DNA of 29,002 nucleotides from a virus. Its lineage: Duplodnaviria > Heunggongvirae > Uroviricota > Caudoviricetes. Shown piece after piece: positions 1 to 27,412 of the stretch. The notes below the pieces were generated by a model. It was given only the letters and a program-made list of their open reading frames with translations. It made no database searches and had not been told where the DNA came from. The translations under genes and the position numbers were made by a program. Each line of letters begins with the position of its first letter. Positions within the stretch are counted from its first letter, which is position 1. The stretch lies in the IMG/VR virus record IMGVR_UViG_3300021256_000063, positions 128,001-157,002 of that record. One strand, 5' to 3'.

Positions 1-712
1 TGCTTTCATTTCAGAAGTCGTTGCTGCTTGCTGATTTGCTTCAGCCTCTAAAGAAGATGCTTCAGCATTTTCTCGCTTGGCCTCATTAAGTCTCTCTAGC
101 GCTTCAGTTTCTTCATTAGTTAAGGCGACTTTAGCCGCATTTCCTGCATCCTCTGTGCTTTCTGTCGCTGGCGATAATGTTTTCTTAATTTCATTTAAAC
201 CATCAGGATGAGGTAGACGTTCAAAGACACCTGTTAAGACTTCTGATGCGGATTTAGAACTGTTTAATAATTGGACATATTTGACCAATAAGCTGTTGGC
301 ATTAAATAATCCTTTCACAACTGTTCCACTAAACAAAGCTGCAAATGCAAATTGAAGTCCACCAACATCGTTGATTAAGTTAAGGATTGTGGTGCCTAAA
401 TCAATGAACATGTTGATGACATCACGGTTAGCAGCATTTGCCCAAAGTTCTTGCCAAGCGTTTTGAAGTTTTGCAAGGTGACCTGAGATGCTATCTAAAT
501 ATTTCTGGTTTTCTTCTAATGCTGATCCCGCGGCTTTGGTGGAAGAGTCTTCGTAGACGGATTGGAGAACATCTGGATTTTGAAGGATACTGCTGGCTAT
601 GGACGCGCGGTTCTTTCCTGCAATTGATTCAAGCAGTAAGTTCTGACGGTTATCGCCTGTTTTTAAATCTGCTTGACGAATCTCATCCCAGATTTGGGAG
701 AGACCTAGCATT
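1..712 (-). CDS. Tape measure protein exon 3 (continues beyond the window's left edge; missing from ORF track)
   Basis: Minus-strand frame has no stop from 711 to 1: MLGLSQIWDEIRQADLKTGDNRQNLLLESIAGKNRASIASSILQNPDVLQSVYEDSSTKAAGSALEENQKYLDSISGHLAKLQNAWQELW... This is the typical second half of the phage TMP core. It joins exon 2 in frame as AT|A (Ile), giving KSTYEI-MLGLSQIWDEI. Confidence 0.92.
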
Positions 713-2252
713 CATTCTGTTACTTTTATGACCTATAAAAAATAGGCGACCAGTCATTTCTGGCTGATTCTCACGTTTCTTATTATATTGGGGTTATAGC
801 GTGAGTTCGGACTGTATATTCATATTTAAATAAAATATGTATAACTTCAATAGTATAATTGCCTATACTATCCCGCAGTCTCTACGGTTGATGTTTTAAT
901 TTGTTCAATTTTATTATTAATCAATTCTTTATATTCCTCTGATTCAAAAGTCCAATATGGGACTTCAAGATAATGATATCCTTTACTTATTGCATAATCT
1001 TTTTTTATCAAATCCTTTTGCTTTTGATATTGAAATTCTTCCTCTGGCGTTTTCCCAGAATTTTTTGATTGAGTAATATGCCATCCACTTAATTCATAAT
1101 GCTGTATCCCGTGAACTTCAACTATTAATTTTAATTCTGGAATTTCATTATCATAGGGCATTTTAAATCCTGTTTTGGGATTTATTGCAATAATAGAACA
1201 TCCATACTCACATTTTAGATTGTACCCAAGTAATAAAATATAATTCTGTACATTCTCTTCTATATAAGACACTGTTCTTTCTTTTGTACACATTGGGCAA
1301 TTAATTGCACCAGATACAGTATAATCTCTAATAGTTCTTAAATAGTCCTCATGTTTCCCTTTTTCACATTTTAGCCAGATTTTTTCATGGCTATTACATC
1401 TAAAGGTATATGGAGAGCGCCTATTTTTATTTGACCATATATTTATAATTTGAGGATATTTATGTCCTAATGAATCTAAATAATGAGTCTTTTTCTTCCC
1501 GTCTTCACAATAAGGACATCTTCGCCCCCTCGTAAAATTCGCCGGAGAAATAGAATATATATGATAATCTATTGATTGACATTTAATTAATACCTTTGGC
1601 TTGTTACTTTGTGGTGCAATTGTAAATGGATCTACATTATTGTCTTTGCTCCAATATTTAGTTAAAAAATCTCCATCTGTATTATTTATGTGATATTGAG
1701 CAAAGCTTTCTTTTGGTAGAATTCTTTTATGATTACAATAAGGGCATGTGCTACGTCCTCGAATAAAAGTATCAGGAGTAGTAATGTGTTCTGGGTGTTC
1801 AGGGTTATCAGCACAACGTACATATATTTTTAAAGTACTTCCTTTTGTAAATTCGTATGGAGATTTATTATTAGTCGGTGACCAAATTTTATATAAATAT
1901 TCTTTACCATATTTTTTTACAACATTATGTCCAAAACTATTATTAAATTTATCAAAAGGGTCTCCTCCTTTTTTTGAACGAATATTAGCTAAAGAATAAG
2001 AAACATCTTCTTCATCTGGATTTATTGTAAACCAATATTTTTTTCCATCTGACATTCGAGAATTTGCAATATCTCCATTCTTTTCATTGTTCCATATAGT
2101 AATTAAATCTTCTCTATGGTGTTCTATACACCACTTGTCGAAACTTTTTTGATACATCGTATTACCTCATGAAATTAATTAAAACATCTTACCTCGGTCT
2201 TATCTTCCCCTAAGACTTTAACCGATATAGTTATATAGAGACAATGTTGTTT
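713..2252 (-). ncRNA. Group I intron 2 in tape measure gene (1540 nt, group IA-like, carries homing endonuclease in L6)
   Basis: The 5' splice site follows U (GAGAU|), and P1 GAGAU/GUCUC (2238-2242) ends in a U.G wobble. P10: 3' exon AAUG pairs with CAUU (2243-2246). P3 UAUAACU/AGUUAUA; P4 UCGGU/ACCGA; 12-bp P6a (2177-2188 with 890-901). R ACCGUAGAGACUG (876-888) and S AAUAUACAGUCC (809-820) give P7 GACUG/CAGUC. Terminal omega-G at 713. Removal restores the TMP frame. Confidence 0.93.
868..2157 (-). CDS. Intron-encoded homing endonuclease: zinc-ribbon repeats plus C-terminal Vsr-like/PD-(D/E)xK nuclease domain
   Basis: 429 aa, GAGGT RBS 7 nt upstream. Three repeats of WSxxNxxxP(Y/F)x(F/I)xxxSxxK...C...H...CP(Y/M)C (DUF4379-like). 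C-terminal YDNEIPELKLIVEVHGIQHY...KKDYAISKGYHYLEVPYW resembles DUF559/Vsr-like (EDxHD-related) nucleases. Lies inside intron 2 between the Q and R elements. Confidence 0.85.
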   Translation of the reverse strand: MYQKSFDKWCIEHHREDLITIWNNEKNGDIANSRMSDGKKYWFTINPDEEDVSYSLANIRSKKGGDPFDKFNNSFGHNVVKKYGKEYLYKIWSPTNNKSPYEFTKGSTLKIYVRCADNPEHPEHITTPDTFIRGRSTCPYCNHKRILPKESFAQYHINNTDGDFLTKYWSKDNNVDPFTIAPQSNKPKVLIKCQSIDYHIYSISPANFTRGRRCPYCEDGKKKTHYLDSLGHKYPQIINIWSNKNRRSPYTFRCNSHEKIWLKCEKGKHEDYLRTIRDYTVSGAINCPMCTKERTVSYIEENVQNYILLLGYNLKCEYGCSIIAINPKTGFKMPYDNEIPELKLIVEVHGIQHYELSGWHITQSKNSGKTPEEEFQYQKQKDLIKKDYAISKGYHYLEVPYWTFESEEYKELINNKIEQIKTSTVETAG

Positions 2253-2494
2253 ATCTCATAAGTTGATTTGTAACGACCTAACTCGTCTTGTATATCAAAT
2301 CCTTTGTAATTATTTGAAGCTACCTTTGTAGCATTCATGATCAGTTCACGCATTTTGGATTGAGATACTATCATGTCAGATGTATCTTCACCCATTTCTT
2401 CCAATTCTTCTGCCGCTTCTTTTGTGCCTGTCAAGCGGAGGGCGATTGTTCTGACGCCCTTCCCAGTTTTACTAGCATCTTGTGTGATTAAGTT
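2253..2494 (-). CDS. Tape measure protein exon 2 (242 nt)
   Basis: NLITQDASKTGKGVRTIALRLTGTKEAAEELEEMGED...FDIQDELGRYKSTYEI is the middle of the TMP core. The ATG called by the ORF track (2495-2497) is the last three intron bases and has no RBS. Confidence 0.92.
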
Positions 2495-2862
2495 CATTTG
2501 TGTTCAGTTATATTCGCAAGATATAACTGTTAATATGTATATTTTATATAAACATATTATTTCTACGGTTACCCGTAGGATCAGACTATATCTTCATCTC
2601 TTTATTAAAAAGAGAGCACACCATTTCCATTTAAGGGATTTTCACCCACTCCATTTGCGATTGAGCCGTACTTCTATTGATTAGGATATGTATTCTCTAG
2701 TCCTAATCCCGACACGGGAATAGTCGTTGAACGTTCCATATATATTATACAAATTAATTATAACATGTCAATATGGCTTCGCTGCTGATTATCCTAATAG
2801 GATTTCCAGCAATTAGATGTGTTCTATATATGTGTTGCCACATATTCAGGCAATTTAATCTC
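2495..2862 (-). ncRNA. Group I intron 1 in tape measure gene (368 nt, ORF-less, IA2-like)
   Basis: The 5' splice site follows GGU|, and P1 CAGGU/GCCUG (2847-2851) has the U.G pair. P10 AACUUAAUC/GAUUAAAUU pairs 8 of 9. P2 AUAUGUG-GCAA-CACAUAU. P AAUUGCUGGAAA (2803-2814), Q AAUCAGCAGC (2781-2790), R GUUCAACGACUA (2721-2732), S AAGAUAUAGUCU (2583-2594). P3 CACAUC/GGUGUG, with extra helices between P7 and P3'. Omega-G at 2495. The spliced junction reads ALTTAG|NLITQD in frame. Confidence 0.95.
2744..2771 (-). promoter_or_regulatory. Consensus sigma70/sigmaA-type promoter inside intron 1 loop L6
   Basis: TTGACA (2766-2771), 16-nt spacer, TATAAT (2744-2749) on the minus strand; both hexamers are perfect. 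Activity is not shown. Confidence 0.65.
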
Positions 2863-5800
2863 ACCTGCTGTCGTCAAAGCAATTGCTTCATCAAGATCAT
2901 TGCCAGCAGTTTGTAATGCAGCCGCACCATCCTGAAGAGCAGTTGCCAATTCATCAGTTGCTATTGCATAATTATTACCAATAAGATTCAATCTATCTAC
3001 GATGTCCATCTTATCGATACCTTCTTCAGCATCAGCATACGCAGCACTCATAGCAACCAATGCAGTTGTTGCGTCATTAATATTATCAAATTCAGAAACA
3101 TTAAATAGTACGTTTGCAGTCTGTGCAGATTGAGATGCTGTCTGTAAATCCTCGCCAAGCCTCATCCAATCGGCAGTACTTGTCTGTAACTGAGCCGCAG
3201 TCGTACCGATCTGATTTGCTGTATCAAATGTACTCTTTTGATATTCTCTTAAACTACTCAGACTTTCATCTGAAACTTTTTGCATTTCCGTCAAAGCGTC
3301 ATCAAGTTCATGGATAATATTAATACCATCTTTGAAAACACCGATTACTCTGTAGAATGAAACAAAGGACAGGAGATAAGCGCCTAAGGATTTGAAACGA
3401 GTCTGGAGTTCAGACATAAATGTAGCACCAGTCCTACCAGCGGCTTGTTCAGCATCCGCAACTTGTTTCCATCCATCTGATAATTTTGTAAAATCTGCTT
3501 GACTTATTCCTTGTTGTAATTGATCAAAGTATCCTTGTAATTGTGCTTTAGCATCAGCACTGATACCCGGATTACTCTTCATAAACTGAGTAATACCCGC
3601 CCTTTGTCTTTCAATATCCCCCACATCAGCAAAAGTAAACTGCTTAGACTTTTCAACTACTTCAGCATAATTTTTATTAAGATCAGCAAATAATTTAACA
3701 ATTTCTTGAATCTGATCTTTTAATTTATCAGGTGCTAGTTGAGTCAAATCAAGACTGCCATTAGCCATGCGTTCTTGAATTTTTTGCAATTCATTTAATG
3801 AATCAACAGCACCTTGTGCATTATTTTGAAATTCTTTAAACTCACTTGCATCACCCAATCCAGCAGTGAATTTTTCACCAAAATTCTTAAAGTAATCCTG
3901 ACTTAAAAATCCTTCGCCTAAAACGTTACCCATTCTGTCTTGAACTTTAGTAAGTTCATCAGAAATATCTGTAATTAATCCACGATAACTTTCAGCAATA
4001 GCATTTCTGATTTTTTGTTGCTGTTCAATCTGACCAGCAGTAGCTTTGCCACCATTGGTGTTAAGATTTTTATTAAGAAAATCACCTTGATTTAATCCAG
4101 TAGCACGATTAAGATTTGTGATACTATCTTCAAATGTCTGAAATGTACGATCAATTTCATTCTGCAATTCGCCTAATGCCTGAGACTTAAAGGAATCTTT
4201 TATTTCTCTAAAGAAGCTTGTATAGGCACCTTTATAACTAGTAAAATAAGTGTTGATACGTCCTTGAATACCTTGTTGAGAATCAAATCTATCTTGAAAA
4301 TCACCAACATCTTCCTTCATTGCGTCAACTAATAATCTAAACCCTTTAACATTACCTTCATCCATAAACTGAAGAGGATTATTATTAATATCTGCAATAA
4401 GTTCTTTGATTACTTGTAGTAATTGCTCTGACGCTTGTAACTGTCCTTGGTATTCTTGATCGGGATTAATTAATTTCTTACTCTTTTTTTGAATACCTTC
4501 AATCTGATCCGCAACTCCAGAAAGTGATTTTTTTAAACCTTCAGCAGTCTTGTTCGCATTTGCCTCTAATTCGGATTGAGCGGCCTTATAGCCTTTATCT
4601 TCGACTTTTAGCGTACTCATTTGAGAATCTAAAGTTTGGCGCAACTCAAGCAATTCTCTTAAAGCATTAGTATCACCAAAATCAAAGGTGCCATTTTTCA
4701 TTGACTCTGCAACAGACTGCAATTTCTGCAAAGATTCTGTAACACCGTCTACAGCGGACATATAAGACCGGGCTTGCTTATCATCTATTTTTGTGTTATT
4801 AATAAAATCAAGACGCCCCTTTGTAGGATTTTGCGTATTAGTTTTATAAGCCGTATCCATTTTTTCAAAGGCTGCTTGCTGTTTTTCTGCTTCAGCAATT
4901 AATGAAGCGGTAAATTCAGCAATTTGCATTTGCCTCTGTTTTAAACCTTTAGTTTGTGCTTCGGTAGATTTTTTATAATCCGCTGGTAAATCGTTTTGAG
5001 CATACATATTAGAATTCGGGGTATAATTATCACCCATATTCTTTAATCTTGCATCCCAGAAAATACGCTCTGTTTCTGTTAAATGAGCGACAGCCGTATC
5101 AAATTCCTGAATTGATTTCGCATTAAGAACAGCATTAAAATCTTTACCATAATTTCCGTATGCTTGTGCTAATTCTTTATCATCAGCTTTGGTCTGCGCT
5201 TTTTGAGCAGCCTTTTCTGCTTGCTCTTTAGCTTTTTGTGCGGCTTTAGCTTCTTGCTCCTCACGAACTTTAGCCTCTTCTTCTGCCGCTTGTTTTTGAA
5301 GAGCAAGCATCATTTGCGTTTGTAATTCGGCTTCCTTATATCTTTGTAAATCTTGTTGCTGTTGAGCAGTAAAAGCATCATTTTCTTTCTGTAAATTTTC
5401 AATCTTTTTATTTGTAGCCTCTTCTTGCTTTTTTTGTAAATCATCAATGGCTTGTTTTTGCTCATCAATTGTTTTCTTCTGTTGTTCGGATACCTGCTTT
5501 AAAGCATCAATTTCCTGTTGAAGAGGCTTGGGATCAAAAGCTTTACTCGCATTAGCACCAGCGCCACCTTCACCATTAAGAGCACCAGTAGTATTTTGAG
5601 CGCTTTGCGCTAAATTCTGATTAGCTTCGGTTACTTGTTTTTTAGCATCAGCCAACTCTTTCATTTTAGCAGCTGCATCAGCGGCTTTATCACCTTCGGT
5701 TTGAACACCGTTACCAGTTTGATTGCCACCTAAATCAGGTTTATTTTCAACTGGTTTAGAAGGTTTCGGCTCAGTAGTTGCCTTCGGCTTTTCTGGAGCA

Positions 5801-8800
5801 GAGGTAGTAGCCTTTTCTTTAGATTGCAATTCTTCCAAGCGTGCTTGCAATCTTGCCATTATTACTTCAGCTTGTTGCTTTTGTTGTTCAAATTGCGCTT
5901 TTGCCCGTTCCGCAGCCTGAGTGGACGCCTGAGCGAATCGTTCTTCGACTTGTTTAAAATCGCTACTCGGTTCTCCTAAATTCTGATACAGTTCTTTAAA
6001 TTCTTCCATTGGCTTTGCAAAATTTTTAGAAGAACCAACATCAAGATTGTCTGCTATTTTAAATGCCTTAGAAAAACCAATCCGCATTTTATCGTAATTG
6101 TCTAATACTTCTTGTGCCTTTTGTGGATCAGCATCTTTACCTAAGCTATTAACTTCTTCTTGCGCTTTTTTTAAATCATCTGCCCATTGTTTAACTTGAG
6201 AATAAGCATTGCGTTTTTGATATTTTTCGCCAACATCAAATGTGGAATCGTCTAATGTAATACTCTTTAAGTTCTGTTCAGCATCGTTTTTTGCTTTTTG
6301 TAATTGTTCAATTTGTTCTTTAACCTGTTTAATTTCTTCAGATTCTTTTGCGAGTGTCGCTTTAGGTTTTGCTGATGGTTTAATAGTAGACTTGGATCGA
6401 GTTTGTGGTTGTTCGAGGTTTTGTCCATCAGTTCTCTGAGTAGCCTGTACCATAGCAGAAACGGCATCAGCCTCTACTTGCATCGCATCAGCCGCACTTT
6501 GGGCATTCTTACCGATATTAGCATTAACACTATCAAATTCAGAAAGTGCTTGAGTAGCAGACGGAATATCTTTAAGTGCATCTATTAAATGTAAAACTGC
6601 TTCACTTTCAGACTGTAAACCACTACTGTTTCCAGCATTATCCCCACTTTTTTCTCCATCACTGCCAAAGATAGAATCTAATAATTGTTGTTCTACATCA
6701 GACAAACTCTTTGCTTTTTCTAAATTATCGTTTGTGTGTTGTGTTTGATCTTCTAATTGTTGCGCCGCATCGGTATTTTTCTTCTCATTCTCTACTTGAG
6801 TTTGTATTTGCCCATCAATTGCTCCTTGTTGTTGTTCTTGGGTAGGCATTATAATTTTAGGTTTTTTACTTTTCTTTTTTTTTACGTTTTCCGTTTGAGG
6901 TTGCGAATCAGAAATTTGTTGTTCTGTTTCATTTATATTGTTAATTTTTTCTTGAACCTTTTGTAGCTCTGTTTGTTTTTCCTCTAAGTTTGTTTCTAGT
7001 CTCTTTAATTCTTCTGTAACTTCCTTCGTTCTATCTTTACGATATTTTTTTGCCGTCTTACCACTTTCTTGAGCATCTATTTCAAAAAACGCATCATCAT
7101 ATTTTTTTGTATCAGTTAATTGTTCCTTCGTTTTTTCTAGTTTCTTTTTTCTATCTTGTAATTTATTTACTTGACTTTGTAATTGCGATAAATTAGATTC
7201 TAATATCTCTTTAGACTCTTCTACATTATTAGCATTATTTTGTGCTACTTGATTTGCATTAGCAGATTCAGTTACAGACGTTTTTTCTGTGCCTTTAGAG
7301 GCACTTTGATTTAATTTCTTTTGAGCATCATTAGCACGTCTCACAGCTTCTTCGGATTCATCAGCGGCTTTTTTTGCTTTATCCGCAGCGTTTTGAGCTT
7401 TCTCTGCATTGCTTTGAGCCTGATCAACATCTTTTTGACCATTATCTTTTGTATCAATATTAGTGCTTTTTTCTTCTTTTTGGAATAGCTCTTTATTTAA
7501 TTGACTTTTTCTTTTTTTTAAAGCTTCAGCGTATTCTTTCCTTTTAGCCATTCTTGCTTCATATCCCACTAACCATTGCGACTCTTGATCGGTAGGACGC
7601 ATAAGGGCTATTGTTTCATCGTCAAATTTACTTTCGCCATACGAATTGTTTTGCTTAATAGTCTTTTCTAACTGATTAAATTCACCTTTTAATTCTAACG
7701 CTTTTTGTTTGCGTTCTTCCATTTGGCTAATCTGTCGGTCAATTTCCTCTAAATCCATATTTTCAATATTTTTAATATCGTAATTTTGGAAATCAGCTTC
7801 AAATTGTTGATCTTCATCAATTCTTGCTTGACGATCTTCTCTTTTTAATTTTTGTTTAAAAATTCTGCGTTGTTTTTCATCTTCTTTTTCTTGTGCTATT
7901 CTTTGTCTTGTTTCTTCTTTTAGTCTTTCTTGTTCCTGTAATGGCTCTAAATTTCTCTGCGCCCTTTCATTTGCTCTTGCCCATTGATTTCTTGTTTGAT
8001 CATAATTATCTAAAAATTTCTGGTCTGCTTCTGTTATTTCTTTTCCTTTAGATTGAGCGTCTTCTATAGCCGCTTTATATTGATCCATAACATCAAGAAT
8101 AAGTTTTATTCTATCAAGAGCATACGTGTACCCTTCAACTGTATTATCGGGTGTCATTATTGAACTTCTTTGTTCAATGTTCAAATTATATAAATCCCGC
8201 AATTGCTCAAGGGGATTTGATTTATTAAAAGCTTCTTGATATTTACTAATCTTCTCAAATATTTTAGAAAAAGTATCTATTTTTATGTTGTTTGAATCTT
8301 GGCCCAAATATAAATCCGTCCAGTCTGTATATTGATCCAGTATTTTAGTAATTCGATCTGCGTCTGTATCTGAACTAATCCAAGAAATCTGATCTAAAGA
8401 ATTTATTGCATTCCAAACTTCTTGTACATCAACAGGTGATAATTGAGCCTCTTCATCTTTTTTCCCTCTATATTTTTTTTTAATCCCTTTAAGTTTTGCT
8501 TCGGCTTCGTCTATTGAATAAACAAATTTTTGAGTCCCTTCTGCATCGCTAGCCATTTGGACTGCTTCTTTAAATCCTAACTTTTTAGTAGAAGACGGCT
8601 CATTTGTTTCTTGTAATACTTGATTTTGTTCCCTTAATAATTCAGTAGTTGCACGGGCGTTTTCGCCTAACTCTTTTTGAGATTCAGATAGTTGTTGTAA
8701 ATTATTTGTGGCACCAGAAGAAGACAAATCATTGTTTGTTGCATTTTGTTCTATAAGTGCTTGATTAACTTCTTCCACCGCATTTTTTAATTCATTTTCA

Positions 8801-9852
8801 GCTTTGATTCCTTCTTGTGCAGACTCTATATTGGGAGTTTCTGTCTTTTCTATTGCTGATTCAGGAGGTTGTTTTTGCTGATTTCCTGATTCATTATTAA
8901 TTTCATTATTTTGCTCTCTTAAAGCGTTAGTAGCACCTTCCGCAGCATTACGTAATTCTTCCTCTGTTTTAACCACATTTTTAATTGGTTTTGCATCAGG
9001 AGTAGAAACGGATGTTTCTAGTTGAGAATCGCCTTTTTGTTTTTTGGGTTTTTGGGGTGTACTTTTAGATTTTTCTGTTTTTGGGGACAAAGATGTCTTT
9101 TTTTTTGAGTCAACTCCATTAAGATACTGTAAAGTCCAATCCCAATCCGTATTTACTGTTTCATTTCTTATTGCATTTCTTAAATCTTGTTGCTTTTGTG
9201 CTAATTTATCAGTTGCTTTTTCAGCCTTTTCTATATCTCCAGCAAACTCTTCCGCATCTTGAGACGCTGCCTTTAACGTACCAGTACCATTACGAAGAGA
9301 TTCAGTAATACCTTGGACATTAGCATCTATTCGATCTAAAGTATCCCCAATTCTATTTAGCGCTTCTTCAGACGCACCAAAACCACCACCTTTACCAGAA
9401 CCACCTAATCCTTCTATACCATTAGGATATTTTTTATATAATTCTTCCAGCTTACTTTGTAAAGGTTTACCTGTTGGATTAGTGTTTGCGGTCATTGATC
9501 TAAAAATTTTAAAAATTTCTGTATCAGAAGCCGCCGCCAATTTAGACATATCTTCTGGCTTAACAGCTTGACTTAATATCTCAAATTTAGAAATATAAGC
9601 GTCTATTTTTTGATTAATTTTATCCAATGATGTCCCACTTATATCGCTAAATACCTTATCAAGATTTAACTCGCTAAAAGCCCCTTTAACATACTTTTGC
9701 ATTTGTTTTATTGATTTAGTATCAATATTAAGTTCGGGTTTTATTTGGGCTTCTTTTTCTATTTTATCTAATAAATCACCTAATGATTTAATTTTATTTT
9801 CGGCCTGAGTAGTATCAGCCATTACCGATATAATAGTACCATTTACAGCCAT
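2863..9852 (-). CDS. Tape measure protein exon 1 (2330 codons)
   Basis: AAGGAGGAG RBS at about 9860-9868. Very long Q/E/K/A-rich helical protein ending in the TMP core start (IHELDDALTEMQKVSDES...TADWMRLG...DIVDRLNLIGNNYAI...DEAIALTTAG). Located after the tail genes. The ORF-track tail EIKLPEYVATHI* is intron sequence. Confidence 0.9.
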
Positions 9853-9872
9853 GTGTTATCTCCTCCTTTTCC

Positions 9873-10298
9873 TTAAAATATATTTCCAGCTTGTACTAAG
9901 GCTACCGATTGTACCTGTGATAGAAACTCGGCAGACTCTGAAAATTGTTTAATAGAATTAAATGGAGAAGTCCTTTGTGCTGCTCCATGATATCCTTCCA
10001 TATCTAATTCAAAAATCAAATTTTTATTATAAGGGTCTTTTGTCCCTTTAGATTGATAATATTCTTCCATATTATCAGATGAAAGTAGGACACCGCCCAT
10101 TATCTTATCTAAATAAGGTTCATAAGAATTATCTTTAAAATTATCTGTACGCTTATACTTAATTGGATCATATTGATCATAATAATCTTCTTGTAATACT
10201 TGTTGCATTTTTTCTGTTAATAATATACATCCAGTTTCTGCAACTGCTTTCTTGTACCTTGTTGCCCAATCTTTAATCTGTTTATCGAATCTTCCCAT
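9873..10298 (-). CDS. Hypothetical phage tail-module protein (141 aa)
   Basis: AAGGAGG RBS. Motif YYDQYDPIKYKRT is reminiscent of small proteins preceding the TMP in large siphoviruses; function assigned by position only. Confidence 0.6.
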   Translation of the reverse strand: MGRFDKQIKDWATRYKKAVAETGCILLTEKMQQVLQEDYYDQYDPIKYKRTDNFKDNSYEPYLDKIMGGVLLSSDNMEEYYQSKGTKDPYNKNLIFELDMEGYHGAAQRTSPFNSIKQFSESAEFLSQVQSVALVQAGNIF

Positions 10299-10321
10299 AA
10301 TAATAGCCCTCCTTTTATACT

Positions 10322-10347
10322 AAAAAAGGACGGCTTTGCGTCCTTTT
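10322..10347 (-). terminator. Rho-independent terminator (possibly bidirectional)
   Basis: AAAAGGACG-caaagc-CGTCCTTTTTT on the minus strand, just after the 10354 stop. Confidence 0.7.
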
Positions 10348-10353
10348 CTTCTT

Positions 10354-10965
10354 TTACTTCTTCACAATCTCTTTCACCTTATCCATATCAACTTCCTCAA
10401 GTACTCCCTCAGCAGCACCTAAGAAGTTGTCAACCCAAGCATGAATAAGCGGAGCAAATTTTACTACCTGTTCCTTGACAAAAGCATGTGGCTCATAATA
10501 ATTTGTCATGATATCATTACTTTTCATATTAAGCACGCTATCAAACATAGCTACCTGCGCTTCAGGGATATAGCTAATAATCACATCAACCAGTCCATAT
10601 TTCTGCAACAGGTTAAAATCGCCCAACGAGTCTTCTTTATCTATTACAATATTTGTATATGTATTAAGCAACGCACTCACATACAACAAATATTTCTTGC
10701 AGGAATCAACCTTAAATTGCCCATCTGCTGTAAAATAACTAGCCGCTATAATCTGGTCACAAATAGCGCATACCACTTCATATCGCTCATATTCTTTAAT
10801 GGCAAGTGTACCCTCAAGATAAACACGTCTTGCGTCATCAGATGAACGGTTCTTCAGTGACTTTACAAAATCCTTAGCGGTCACATATTTAATCATGTTA
10901 TTATCATCAGCAGTAAAATACTGTCTTACCTTAGGTTCCTGATTCTGATTTGTATTCTTTGCCAT
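10354..10965 (-). CDS. Hypothetical protein, candidate tail assembly chaperone (203 aa)
   Basis: AAAGGAG RBS; acidic helical protein between tail tube and TMP. Function from synteny only. Confidence 0.55.
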   Translation of the reverse strand: MAKNTNQNQEPKVRQYFTADDNNMIKYVTAKDFVKSLKNRSSDDARRVYLEGTLAIKEYERYEVVCAICDQIIAASYFTADGQFKVDSCKKYLLYVSALLNTYTNIVIDKEDSLGDFNLLQKYGLVDVIISYIPEAQVAMFDSVLNMKSNDIMTNYYEPHAFVKEQVVKFAPLIHAWVDNFLGAAEGVLEEVDMDKVKEIVKK

Positions 10966-10987
10966 AATTTAATCTCCTTTTCTTCCT

Positions 10988-11458
10988 TTATCCAAACTTT
11001 TTGCAGTATGCCAGCCCAATACATATAGCATCTGCTTCGTCATCATTTACATCCATATTAAGATTATCCTTAATATATTTAATTGAAGCTTTCTTAAACT
11101 CATCTCGTTTTCTACCAAATGCCTGAAGCTTCACATACTTACGCCATTCACTGGGCGCAAATTCATAATATGTAATTCCATTAAATAAACAAAAACCATA
11201 GACCGCTCCAATAATTTTCATGAGCATATCTATAACTTTCATATTTCCAAACACAACATCTTTTTCAATAACAATAATATCGGGCTTTAATTGTCCAATA
11301 CTATCTAATAACTCTTTTGTCATTAATTTAAGACGTTCATAGCCATTCTTTACTTTTTTAAAATCATCAATGACACCAGATTCTTGATATTCACCATCTT
11401 TGAAAATAGCCCATCCCGTAGATGTAGTACTGGTGTCAAGAGATAGAAGAGTAGTCAT
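10988..11458 (-). CDS. RuvC-like Holliday junction resolvase
   Basis: RNase H-fold RuvC motifs LLSLDTSTTSTGWAIF, PDIIVIEK and DDEADAICIG; 156 aa; GGAGG RBS. Confidence 0.85.
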   Translation of the reverse strand: MTTLLSLDTSTTSTGWAIFKDGEYQESGVIDDFKKVKNGYERLKLMTKELLDSIGQLKPDIIVIEKDVVFGNMKVIDMLMKIIGAVYGFCLFNGITYYEFAPSEWRKYVKLQAFGRKRDEFKKASIKYIKDNLNMDVNDDEADAICIGLAYCKKFG

Positions 11459-11703
11459 ATCGTATCCTCCTCAAGTTCATACTTGCACCATAACTCATAG
11501 GCTTCTTTAGTTTCCTCTTTTAAGAAAATCATTACTAAAATCGTCTTGCCTGTCTTCCTGTCCATACCTGTATACACATCAATAGGATAAATCCCATTCG
11601 CTATATATAATTTAAATTGCTTCGAATTAACTATCCGTACTACTTCAGATGGATAATAAGGTCGTGGATGAAGATTAGGCGTAATAAGATCATGTCCAAA
11701 CAT
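11455..11703 (-). CDS. Small hypothetical phage protein (82 aa)
   Basis: GAGG RBS; ATGA overlap with the downstream resolvase gene. Confidence 0.7.
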   Translation of the reverse strand: MFGHDLITPNLHPRPYYPSEVVRIVNSKQFKLYIANGIYPIDVYTGMDRKTGKTILVMIFLKEETKEAYELWCKYELEEDTI

Positions 11704-11706
11704 AAT

Positions 11707-11907
11707 TTATTCCTCTCTCTTCTTATTTAAATAGTCCTTGGGACAAACCCATTGACCTTCATGTCTACCAGTTTCTGGATTATAAAGATAGATATAAACT
11801 CTATCCACATCCAAATTTTGCATACCGATCTGTAAATCGCTGTGTTGCTTATGGCGTATATAGAATCCATTCGTTACCTTATATGAATTATTTTCTCTAT
11901 AAAACAT
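11707..11907 (-). CDS. Small hypothetical protein (66 aa, start revised to MFYRENN)
   Basis: AAGGAG at 11915-11920 precedes ATG 11905-11907. The ORF-track start lies in the terminator U-tract. Confidence 0.6.
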   Translation of the reverse strand: MFYRENNSYKVTNGFYIRHKQHSDLQIGMQNLDVDRVYIYLYNPETGRHEGQWVCPKDYLNKKREE

Positions 11908-11929
11908 AGTTGTTCTCCTTTTGCCGTAC

Positions 11930-11972
11930 AAAAAAAGGGCATAACCTCGCCTGAACAGCGTAAGCTATGCCC
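11930..11972 (-). terminator. Long intrinsic terminator with possible antiterminator partner at 12053-12061
   Basis: GGGCAUAGCUU-A-CGCU-guuca-GGCG-AGGUUAUGCCC followed by a U7 tract. Confidence 0.8.
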
Positions 11973-12072
11973 TTTTATCAATATAACTATCCTCTATTAT
12001 GTAATAAAAAACTAGTAATAGGATAGTGTTTGTCAAAAGTCAAAATAATAATCACTGTTCATTCAAAAATAA

Positions 12073-12498
12073 TTAATGCTTCTTACCATTACGATAAGCG
12101 ATTGAGCGAGGAATGTTTTTACTAGATTCACGAGTGGAATCATAGACCGCTTTCTTAACTGTGTCGCCCGCAATCTGTTTTTCAACCTCTTCTTTAACAG
12201 GTTCGGATTCAGACTCTTCTACAGGTTTCTGGTCTTCAACCATAATCTTTTTATAGCTACCAGCCATAGAGTTTTTAAGCATTTTCATTTTACCCTGATC
12301 CATTCCTTGAAGCACCTTACGGGCATCTTCTTTAGAGGTTTGTCCCGCTTCAAAAGAGGAAAGTACGTCAAACAAATCTACGCACTCCTTACTACAATAC
12401 ATTGTCATATATGAAGGGTAATTAAGAAATCTATCACAATTTGTGCAGTATTCATAATGTTTTCCACATACGACACAAGTTCTATCATATTTTCCCAT
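12073..12498 (-). CDS. Zinc-finger hypothetical protein (141 aa)
   Basis: CVVC-x6-CTNC...YCSKEC cysteine pattern; AAGGAG RBS; charged C-terminal tail. Confidence 0.75.
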   Translation of the reverse strand: MGKYDRTCVVCGKHYEYCTNCDRFLNYPSYMTMYCSKECVDLFDVLSSFEAGQTSKEDARKVLQGMDQGKMKMLKNSMAGSYKKIMVEDQKPVEESESEPVKEEVEKQIAGDTVKKAVYDSTRESSKNIPRSIAYRNGKKH

Positions 12499-12502
12499 AT
12501 TT

Positions 12503-13744
12503 TTACGCTCCTTTGTTTCGTTTCTTATGATTACCTTTTAAAGATTCTCGATAATCACATAATCCTAATTCTCTCCCTTTCTGTAAATATCGCACCACAG
12601 TACCAATATGAACATGGTATTCATCTGCAATATTAGCAAGAGTCATATTAGGATTATTCTTATATAATTTACAAGTTGCAATTAACACATTTTTTTGTGC
12701 TGCTAAGTCGGCTTTATTAAAATCAACATTAGAATAATCAAATGGTATATTAGATTTAATTAAAGATTGTATGATATAATCTTTTTCAGAACGACTACAA
12801 TCTAACTCAATATAGTGTTTAATTCCATTTTGCAAAGCTAATTCTTTCTTTTGTTTATCAATCTTTCTTTGCAGTTCTATTTTATGCCATCCGTCTTCAT
12901 AATGTTGTGCGCCATTCGTTTCTACAATACAATGGTATTCTGGCAAATAAAAATCATACCGATATTTTTCACACCATTCAAAATCAGATTTATTTAATTG
13001 AGTCTTATATTTCACCCCTACTTGCTCTAAAATATTAAGAAAAAATTTTTCTGGATAACTAAACCCATCAGAACACTTAGGACATGCAAAAGATTGAAAA
13101 TATAAATTGCTCACACACATTTTCTTTTTAAAACCACAAATAGGACATGTCATATCAGTTTTTTTATTACTGGTCTTAGTATGTGTATGAACATAATTAA
13201 TATCATCAATATAAGGAACAGCCCAAGGTATGGTAGTAGATATATCATTTACACCTACAATAACCTTAGTCCCCGCACAACAACCGCATCCTTTACCGTC
13301 TCTTAAATCTGCCTCATTAACCCAGAAATCATCCATAGCGCAATCATATCCACATATTAAACATCTGTATTGATAATATTTATGATTTCTATTATTTGGA
13401 TTATTATTTATTTCAACGTATTTTCTTGCGGTTATTAATATATTTCTATCATGTGAACCAATATGATCTTTAATTATATCACCTTCAGCATATTTCCATT
13501 CTATTGTTTGCCCAAATATTTTGGCAATTCTGCCCTTTTTTATATATTTCCCATAAAGCATATATTTTTTATTTTTATATATCACATATACCTTATCTCT
13601 TGATTCGAAGTCCACAATTTTAAAACTATCCTTTAAACCATCATACTCAAATGGTATACTTAATCCAATAGTATTTCTCCAATCACAGGCTTCTTTACCA
13701 TTTTTCAGAATTTTAGGAACCTCTGTTAAATCACATTTTCGCAT
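12503..13744 (-). CDS. Free-standing homing-endonuclease-like protein (zinc ribbon, Vsr-like/PD-(D/E)xK, C-terminal HTH), 413 aa
   Basis: AAGGAG RBS before ATG 13742-13744 (MRKCDL). Cys pairs CLICG, GCGCC, CPICG, CPKC. Nuclease motif YRYDFYLPEYHCIVETNGAQHY...KKELALQNGIKHYIELD. HTH-like TLANIADEYHVHIGTVVRYLQKG. Visibly more AT-rich than the flanking structural genes. Confidence 0.8.
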   Translation of the reverse strand: MRKCDLTEVPKILKNGKEACDWRNTIGLSIPFEYDGLKDSFKIVDFESRDKVYVIYKNKKYMLYGKYIKKGRIAKIFGQTIEWKYAEGDIIKDHIGSHDRNILITARKYVEINNNPNNRNHKYYQYRCLICGYDCAMDDFWVNEADLRDGKGCGCCAGTKVIVGVNDISTTIPWAVPYIDDINYVHTHTKTSNKKTDMTCPICGFKKKMCVSNLYFQSFACPKCSDGFSYPEKFFLNILEQVGVKYKTQLNKSDFEWCEKYRYDFYLPEYHCIVETNGAQHYEDGWHKIELQRKIDKQKKELALQNGIKHYIELDCSRSEKDYIIQSLIKSNIPFDYSNVDFNKADLAAQKNVLIATCKLYKNNPNMTLANIADEYHVHIGTVVRYLQKGRELGLCDYRESLKGNHKKRNKGA

Positions 13745-13792
13745 ATAATACTCCTTTTTATATTTTTCCTTCTTTTTCTCCCTGAAACTCTG

Positions 13793-13827
13793 AAATAAAA
13801 ACATGGTGGGCTGTGACACCCACCATG
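13793..13827 (-). terminator. Intrinsic terminator downstream of tail tube gene
   Basis: CAUGGUGGG-ugucacag-CCCACCAUG (9-bp stem) followed by UUUUUAUUU. Confidence 0.8.
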
Positions 13828-13843
13828 CCATTAGTTATATTTA

Positions 13844-14039: not shown

Positions 14040-14401
14040 CAAACTGTTACTTTCCCCAGTGCTTGTTGGGTACTGACTATATTACTATAGCGGATAGGAA
14101 TTTCTACCTATCTCTCACGTTTCTTATTTAGATTATTGCGTGAGTTCAGACTATATATCATCCCACATCATTCTTGTGGGCAACAGCTTCGATAAAACAA
14201 TTAGTTGTCTTATCCTGTAGTCGTTGCGGATTCTTGATAATATTACCAAGTCTTTCCTCAGGATTACCCATCTCTGGGCTTCCCCTGATATAGCTGTTAT
14301 TGACACTTATTTTATTTTAACGATGTGCAAGTGTATATAGATTACTCTATAATCGTCATTTACATATTATAAACGAAAAAATCATTATAAATATGCGACA
14401 A
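14040..14401 (-). ncRNA. Group I intron 3 in tail tube gene (ORF-less; 5' boundary uncertain: 14401, 14400 or 14371)
   Basis: P UAUCAGGGGAAG (14279-14290), Q AAUCCUGAG (14257-14265), R CGCAACGACUA (14218-14228), S GAUAUAUAGUCU (14148-14159). P3 AACAGCU/AGCUGUU, P7 GACUA/UAGUC, P8 CCCACA/UGUGGG. P9.0 GAAC/GUUU then omega-G at 14040. P10 GUUUACAU/AUGUAAAU. Confidence 0.9.
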
Positions 14402-15022
14402 AGCGCGCAGCACATCGGCCTCACAGGGATCGACGCAGAGACCCTTGAGAGTCAGACGAACAGTAGCCGGGAACTTATCAGCAGAGTTAAGAATATCAAC
14501 ACCCTCAGTAACCTGACGGTCATACTTAACAACATACTGAGCCTCAGTTGTATCTGTAGGAGGAGTCAGTTTAGTACCGTTCAGACCAAACTCAGTCGCA
14601 GAAGCAGCAGTACCCTGAGTATAAGCCTTACCCATAGCACCATTGGTACCCAGAGCATTCACACTGATACGATTACCAGTAACAAAGCCCTCCAGATCGA
14701 CAGTAGTACCACTCTTAACAGTGATAATCTTAGGCATGACAATAACATTATCAGCAGTAGCGATATTAGCATCGTTACCAGACTGAGCTGCCATAACGTT
14801 CAGGTTGAGCATTGCGTTAGTCGCAGTAAACTCACCAGTTTTTGCGTTCCAGAAACGCTTAATCAGCGTACCGTCCTTATCAACAGCGTCACGAGACTCT
14901 GCGGAAATCTCAATAGAAGCCTCAGAAAGCTGAGTCAGGACATAAAGAGGTGTGCCATCAAATTTCTCGGCATAACCCATGGAAATTCTATCAATAATCA
15001 AATCACCAAGTTTAAAAGCCAT
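14402..15022 (-). CDS. Major tail (tube) protein exon 1
   Basis: AAGGAAGG RBS; beta-rich T/A/G-rich protein with highly-expressed codon bias like the capsid gene; follows the neck genes. About 261 aa after splicing if the 5' site is after GCU. Confidence 0.8.
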
Positions 15023-27335: not shown

Positions 27336-27412
27336 TAACGGGAGGGGGATTTGAACCCCCGAATCTCTAGCCTATGAAGCTAGCGAGTTAAACCGAACTT
27401 CTCCATCCCGCA
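27336..27412 (-). tRNA. tRNA with CAU anticodon (Met/fMet-like), CCA not encoded
   Basis: Cloverleaf: acceptor (U)GCGGGA/UCCCGU(U) with discriminator A; D-stem GAG/CUC; anticodon stem CUAGC/GCUAG with loop UUCAUAG; T-arm GGGGG-UUCAAAU-CCCCC. Confidence 0.9.

Follow-up and report, generated by a model that had tools for sequence, protein, structure and literature searches.

Two independent group I introns very probably interrupt the TP901-type core of the tape measure gene of a ~157-kb phage. The gene occupies the minus strand of a 29,002-nucleotide (nt) stretch of caudoviricete DNA (the window), which corresponds to bases 128001-157002 of the 157,002-base IMG/VR virus record IMGVR_UViG_3300021256_000063. 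Exon 1 (2863..9852, 2330 codons, from the list of open reading frames (ORFs)) runs from an ATG at 9852 to its last base, U2863. It is followed by intron 1 (2495..2862; 368 nt, no ORF, IA-like, with P2 and P7.1/P7.2), exon 2 (2253..2494; 242 nt, encoding codons 2331-2410 plus two bases of Ile2411), intron 2 (713..2252; 1540 nt, with a nuclease ORF in its P6 loop) and the start of exon 3 (1..712), which is open past the window and has 3061 codons in all. Junction 1 falls between codons 2330 and 2331, junction 2 after the second base of Ile2411, and the three exons joined give a single open frame, of 2648 codons as far as the window goes and of 5472 over the whole contig. Because exon 2 measures 3x80+2 nt, skipping it would shift the frame. 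The original prediction, made from the sequence of the window, had proposed two group I introns with a U.G pair in P1, a P10 and an omega-G, a spliced frame of at least 2648 codons continuing past the window and an exon 2 that is not a multiple of three: the coordinates check out on the minus strand, and frame and exon length are as described.

Junctions in the tape measure core

The last ~160 codons of exon 1 form the first part of the TP901-type core: they match positions 4-163 of TIGR01760 (TP901 tape-measure core) with 38.2 bits (cut-off 28.8), and the match stops at the final residue before junction 1. The head of exon 3 matches positions 210-301 of the same model (25.4 bits, which alone is under the cut-off). 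Exon 2 by itself gives no TIGR01760 match, and a Pfam search of the exon products returned nothing useful. The tape measure family phrog_4211 is divided in the same way, the exon 1 tail (E 3.6e-32) covering positions 555-758 and the exon 3 head positions 829-956. Tape measure families are thus matched on either side of the introns, by the tail of exon 1 and by the head of exon 3, which puts the introns inside the TP901-type core; that the interruption strikes the most conserved part of the protein, as had been claimed, is borne out by the TIGR01760 match, which ends at junction 1 and starts again in exon 3.

The spliced translation aligns with intron-less homologues, collinear and gap-free over both junctions. 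For this comparison the spliced protein segment was built in a script and mapped on related contigs; exon 2 alone found no match by tblastn among 50,697 phage records, and collinearity was therefore taken from longer spliced segments. In the unannotated clone MT837120.1, one gap-free tblastn high-scoring segment pair (28% identity, E 9e-41) spans both junctions, and the segment is collinear in Thomasclavelia phage TR-TP1 too. A search with exon 2 showed it to be encoded in 16 related viral contigs. Two contigs, L033 and L037 (80% amino acid (aa) identity), are uninterrupted over both junctions and contain no introns, with no indel at either junction in nucleotide alignments; seven further, more distant contigs are likewise uninterrupted.

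Other relatives are filled in various combinations. Both introns are present in L035 and L036. L034 is interrupted at junction 1 alone, by an insert of 1.5 kb; L032 is interrupted at junction 1 as well and bears a second, different insert some 35-40 codons past junction 2. The intron 2 site is empty in L032, L033, L034 and L037. At this site all carriers of intron 2 read GAG AT-A ATG (the dash marking the junction), most empty alleles GAA ATC ATG, and L037 GAG ATC ATG: the two bases that are changed in the carriers are those completing P1 and P10.

Ribozyme cores of the two introns

Intron 1 matches the full length (positions 1-253) of the Rfam model RF00028 at window 2872..2562, scoring 85.6 bits (E 1e-20; gathering score 50), and the alignment sets the conserved U.G on U2863. 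P1 is CAGGU/GCCUG with the U2863.G pair, P10 joins AACUUAAUC with GAUUAAAUU (8/9 pairs), and the terminal (omega) G is G2495. The core resembles, in parts, introns of Bacillus phages AR9/PBS1 and of Vibrio phages. Homologues occupy the same site in L032 (95% identity), L035/L036 (88%) and L034 (90%, with an ORF). The junction-1 insert of L034 is a copy of intron 1, with 90% identity over positions 9-306 and 81% over 313-368, into which a 383-aa ORF and its ribosome-binding site are set, between P9 and the terminal hairpin; the ORF encodes a Vsr-like nuclease that is distantly related to the intron 2 nuclease. L034 gave no RF00028 match in a pooled Rfam search despite its 90% identity to intron 1, which is probably a filter effect. 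The matching short spacer of the window intron keeps an ATG, two codons and a stop, and looks like a deletion scar. Because the L034 homologue bears its own nuclease, intron 1 of the window looks like the ORF-less form of an autonomous intron; most simply, it would represent a nuclease-less stage of the homing cycle that is now vertically inherited.

Intron 2 shows no blastn similarity to intron 1, and the two differ in structure as predicted: P2 and P7.1/P7.2 are present in intron 1, whereas in intron 2 P2 is missing and L6 holds the ORF. P1 of intron 2 is GAGAU/GUCUC with a U2253.G pair, P10 is AAUG/CAUU, and omega-G is G713. A fold made by hand places, on the minus strand, the guide/P10 strand at 2246-2238, P3 at 2235-2229, P4 at 2224-2220, the 3' strand of P6 at ~901-890 and the two strands of P7 at 880-876 and 814-810. 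The 3' half of the intron is 75% identical to TR-TP1, and this similarity stops exactly at base 713; among phage records, blastn with intron 2 and with an ORF-less relative retrieved TR-TP1, TR-TP2 and one unannotated clone only. A 19-mer from the 3' region of P7 occurs in 18 viral contigs.

Nine distinct members of the intron 2 family, at different insertion sites, were compared. In the 5' part they share P1 with its U.G, a P10 strand just 5' of the guide, P3, J3/4 (AUAU), P4 (CGGUY/GACCG) and a P5 flanked by A-rich J4/5 (AAA) and J5/4 (UAA), followed by a long P6, the loop of which holds the ORF, and by P7 (GACUG/CAGUC). After the 5' strand of P7 come an extra hairpin (P7.1), P3', P8, J8/7 (AAUAUA) and P7', and the 3' end consists of P9, two further hairpins and a terminal G. 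The 5' strand of P3 thus precedes that of P7, and P3' lies between both P7 strands: P3 and P7 interleave, which makes this a group I pseudoknot. Paired variants among the nine members number eight for P3 and nine each for P5, P6, P7.1 and P8, and P6 reaches 9-14 bp across strands that are 1-1.5 kb apart, compared with an average of 6.9 bp for non-cognate pairs. The guide tracks the exon, with AGGGU/GCCCU and P10 GUUG/CAAU in TR-TP1 and GUGGU/GCCAC in L016. An ORF-less member of 258 nt (L038 3743-4000) yields the same helices in a single-sequence minimum free energy fold (z -4.1), as does RNAalifold on the family. A further ORF-less member is present in L030 (reverse strand, around 2400-2800), such members being about 260 nt long. 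The assignment of both introns to group I stands, with Rfam in its favor for intron 1; Rfam misses intron 2, and there the assignment was set by comparative covariation.

Several observations weigh against reading the insertions as two working group I introns. RF00028 finds no match in intron 2 at E<=10, be it whole, in halves or as the 3' half alone, and none at E<=10 in the ORF-less family members of L038 and L030 or in a 300-nt slice; the sole Rfam matches of intron 2 and its ORF-less relatives are chance-level, to Ref70. We attribute this miss to the model, not to the RNA: RF00028 is a single Rfam model, which may not cover every group I subgroup, and the family may be its blind spot. Helix lengths are inflated, given the longest-helix search in anchored windows of AT-rich sequence, and non-cognate controls reach 10 bp for P6 and 7 bp for P3. 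L035 and L036 are nearly alike in this region, so that few independent lineages are compared. Loss rather than gain is the presumed direction of the ORF difference in intron 1. Self-splicing itself is a prediction from sequence.

Alternatively, intron 2 could be a group I derivative unable to splice by itself, either degenerate or dependent on protein, with help from a factor of the phage or host or from its own nuclease as maturase. The failure of RF00028 to recognise the family is in keeping with this idea, as is a small core without P2 and with a 1.3-kb insert in L6. We nevertheless regard it as unlikely: the core helices of intron 2, its A-rich J4/5 and J5/4 and its J8/7-P7 segment resemble those of intron 1, and its helices are kept by compensatory change over the nine members and their different insertion sites, which argues for continuing selection on a working ribozyme. 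Both introns are expected to leave the mRNA by guanosine-initiated two-step transesterification, with 5' splice sites after U2863 and U2253 and 3' splice sites after G2495 and G713, and splicing would yield one 5472-codon message.

The intron 2 nuclease and movement of the introns

The gene in the P6 loop of intron 2 (868..2157, minus strand) encodes a putative homing endonuclease of 429 aa. The N-terminal 295 residues are made up of DUF4379 zinc-finger units, three of them treble-clef units recognised by Pfam (PF14311, E 3e-22), and not of NUMOD or helix-turn-helix motifs. Pfam returned nothing useful for the C-terminus. Since phmmer against PDB sequences gave only a DUF4379 protein and no match to 3r3p, the link to Vsr needed a fold search. 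An AlphaFold (AF2) model of the nuclease (predicted local distance difference test score, pLDDT, 93) superimposes residues 297-422 on the I-Bth0305I catalytic domain 3r3p_A (Z 11.3, root mean square deviation 2.4 A, 96/97 residues), and Vsr structures 1cw0 and 1vsr follow with Z 11.2 and 10.4: the C-terminal domain is thus modelled as a Vsr/I-Bth0305I-like nuclease fold. All 170 homologues found contain PF14311, and among 48 that were aligned the zinc-ligand Cys/His residues together with D336, E347, G350, H353, D382 and K385 are invariant. The final ~11 codons of the gene share their bases with the 3' strand of P6, J6/7 and the 5' strand of P7.

Intron 2 is very probably a mobile element, the enzyme from its P6 loop combining a zinc-finger DNA-binding array with a Vsr-like nuclease. 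We infer both the activity of this nuclease and its target site: the presumed substrates are intron-less alleles, which would be cut near the Glu-Ile-Met codons and would gain the intron on repair.

According to the original prediction, ORF-less intron 1 may spread by hitch-hiking in the co-conversion tract of the intron 2 nuclease, so that both introns would behave as one unit. Intron homing is known to co-convert flanking markers; moreover, all three carriers of intron 2 seen (the window, L035 and L036) have intron 1 too, and a nuclease-bearing intron lies within about 360 nt of every ORF-less copy of intron 1 seen. The distribution and divergence of the introns nevertheless make this scenario improbable. 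L032, which is ~95% identical to the window at the nucleotide level, has the ORF-less intron 1 (95% identity) and no intron 2, and L034 has intron 1 with its own nuclease, again without intron 2. Comparison of the window with L035 shows intron 2 to be 97.7% identical, as against 79-89% for exon 1, 85-88% for intron 1, 82% for exon 2 and 82-87% for exon 3 (head 84%), and the mismatches closest to intron 2 stand 20 nt away on the upstream side and 4 nt away on the downstream side. Compared with L032, on the other hand, the exon 1 tail, intron 1, exon 2 and the exon 3 head of the window are 94-98% identical. An intron 2 with 97.7% identity amid flanks of 79-88% indicates that the last transfer left exon 2 and intron 1 behind, and the combination of an L035-type intron 2 with an L032-type gene (intron 1 and exon 2 included) contradicts hitch-hiking for the event that is visible.

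Judged by these identities, intron 2 was very probably passed on by an L035-like donor to an L032-like gene in which intron 1 was already present, and hardly any flanking DNA accompanied it. Its entry into the lineage would be recent, with a co-conversion tract that seems to have extended ~20 nt or less upstream. A looser model, in which any neighboring nuclease helps intron 1 to spread, may still hold.

A second kind of connection between the neighbors may lie in a promoter-like site, TTGACA-16-TATAAT, in the P6 loop of ORF-less intron 1 (2744..2771, minus strand; 12/12 consensus match). It is kept in the intron 1 homologues of L032 and L035/L036 (in the latter with a 17-nt spacer) and scores 11/12 in the ORF-bearing copy of L034 and in the related third intron of L035, both of which have their own nuclease gene downstream of it. 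The site fits a relic of the promoter of the intron's own nuclease; it may now drive the intron 2 nuclease, which would link the neighboring introns by a route other than co-conversion.

A reading without any splicing, in which three separately translated tape measure polypeptides assemble as in some nuclease-split phage genes, is very hard to sustain even though an in-frame ATG stands at each intron end (2497-2495 ahead of exon 2, 711-709 where exon 3 begins): neither ATG is preceded by a Shine-Dalgarno sequence, both insertions contain ribozyme cores backed by a covariance model or by covariation, and the insertion borders match the U.G/omega-G sites and the empty alleles to the base. An intein was considered and rejected as well.

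A cluster of insertion sites and comparison with known systems

Among the relatives the tape measure core contains at least seven intron sites within about 200 codons. In the aa numbering of the window, the site at 2292/3 is filled in L046 by an intron of the intron 2 type with a 306-aa ORF, and that at 2317/8 in L036, L038 and L039 by an intron with an intron-1-like core and a 334-aa ORF (RF00028, 65.4 bits). Intron 1 occupies 2330/1 in the window, L032, L034, L035 and L036; an ORF-less intron of the intron 2 type occupies 2342 in L038 and L039; and intron 2 occupies 2410/1 in the window, L035 and L036. Further downstream, L032 is filled at ~2444-2453 (an insertion typed only by partial similarity to the intron 1 core) and L035 at 2489 (RF00028, 69.8 bits). 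One more site, just past 2419, is seen in TR-TP1. Exons between introns can be very short: L036 3578-3617 is a 39-nt exon between two introns, encoding NDLDEAIALTTAG, and L038 3668-3742 is a 75-nt exon between two group I introns.

A broader account of these data, which we put forward tentatively and hold to be possible rather than probable, is that the core is an unusually dense landing zone (at least seven sites in ~200 codons, up to three introns per gene, exons down to 39 nt) in which two ribozyme families swap Vsr-like nuclease cassettes, the intron 2 type being a compact, P2-less group I lineage unseen by Rfam and the promoter-like site of intron 1 perhaps driving the intron 2 nuclease.

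The GenBank record of TR-TP1 (PQ571309.1, L002) provides a parallel. Its tape measure gene (6900-12330) is annotated as gp27, gp29 and gp31, with two 'HNH endonuclease' genes between the fragments; the first gap contains an RF00028 match of 54.6 bits and the second an intron of the intron 2 type. The record holds two unannotated group I introns.

Group I introns of subgroups IA1/IA2 have been described from the tape measure genes of B. cereus-group prophages, where TMP-IVS1, TMP-IVS2 and TMP-IVS3 occupy three sites, with up to two introns per gene, retargeting via P1/P10 and some copies without a nuclease gene; a tail tube intron is known from the same phages (Tourasse and Kolsto 2008, PMC2504315). 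The introns reported here are likewise IA-type group I introns in a tape measure gene, and related introns are retargeted through P1/P10. They differ in belonging to a distinct phage lineage (no DNA similarity was found), in the spacing of the introns (242 nt, with 39 or 75 nt in relatives), in the number of sites (at least seven in ~200 codons) and in the zinc-finger/Vsr-like nucleases. The case is therefore a clean new example of a phenomenon known since 2008, well supported and unusually rich in natural variants, and leaves the understanding of group I introns unchanged.

I-Bth0305I, the prototype of the EDxHD (Vsr-like) homing endonucleases, is encoded by Bacillus phage 0305phi8-36, within the group I intron of recA, and bears NUMOD motifs in its N-terminus (PMC3239194). 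The intron 2 nuclease has in common with it a C-terminal Vsr-like catalytic domain (here modelled), an N-terminal DNA-binding part and a gene within a phage group I intron; unlike I-Bth0305I, it has zinc fingers in place of NUMOD/helix-turn-helix motifs, and its ORF lies in P6, not P5. The T4 td intron with I-TevI is, like intron 2, a phage IA-type group I intron with a nuclease ORF looped out of P6 and preceded by its own ribosome-binding site. I-TevI, however, is a GIY-YIG nuclease whereas that of intron 2 is Vsr-like, and the 3' end of the ORF here runs into P6', J6/7 and P7. Homing of the td intron proceeds by double-strand-break repair, the mechanism presumed for intron 2 as well. Three group I introns interrupt orf142 of Staphylococcus phage Twort. 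In Bacillus phage Moonbeam the terminase and DNA polymerase genes have two introns each (PMC4299906). The shared feature of Twort, Moonbeam and the present phage is the presence of several group I introns, some with nuclease genes, in one conserved phage gene; the genes and the intron lineages are different.

For annotation the consequence is practical: gene callers fragment this 5472-codon gene, and the TR-TP1 record suffers from the same problem. Because the intron 2 family is unseen by RF00028, similar interruptions have probably been missed in many viral metagenome contigs. The related contigs, in turn, are a natural series of filled and empty sites suited to tests of the homing cycle and of zinc-finger/Vsr-like nucleases: they display homing with what seems a very short co-conversion tract, and the same intron with and without a nuclease gene.

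The tape measure protein itself is long. After splicing (window 1-9852, minus strand, and on to contig base ~119,528) it would comprise 5472 aa, whereas the longest tape measure profiles matched in PHROG have 2625-2675 positions, about half as many. Its TP901 core lies mid-protein (about aa 2170-2500), not near the N-terminus. Tail length follows a rule of thumb of ~1.5 A per residue of tape measure; a 5472-aa protein would imply a tail near 800 nm. Tandem repeats were considered as the cause of the gene's length and rejected: there is one weak 21-nt array only.

Elsewhere in the window, a sub-threshold RF00028 match (14137-14381, minus strand; 38.2 bits, E 2e-9) lies just downstream of the ORF 14360-15022 (phrog_2729, virion structural protein) and overlaps its 3' end; a structural or tail gene of the phage probably holds a third group I intron here. 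This candidate is adjoined by a free-standing 442-aa ORF (12506-13831, minus strand) that shares the nuclease domain of intron 2 (30% identity over 121 aa, E 7e-7) and also matches phrog_4538, phrog_559 and phrog_9084. Outside the window, the same phage genome has another sub-threshold RF00028 match on the plus strand (contig G000:C1:63247-63510; 39.9 bits, E 6e-10). A tRNA gene is located at 27336-27412 of the window (minus strand; Rfam RF00005, 49.1 bits).

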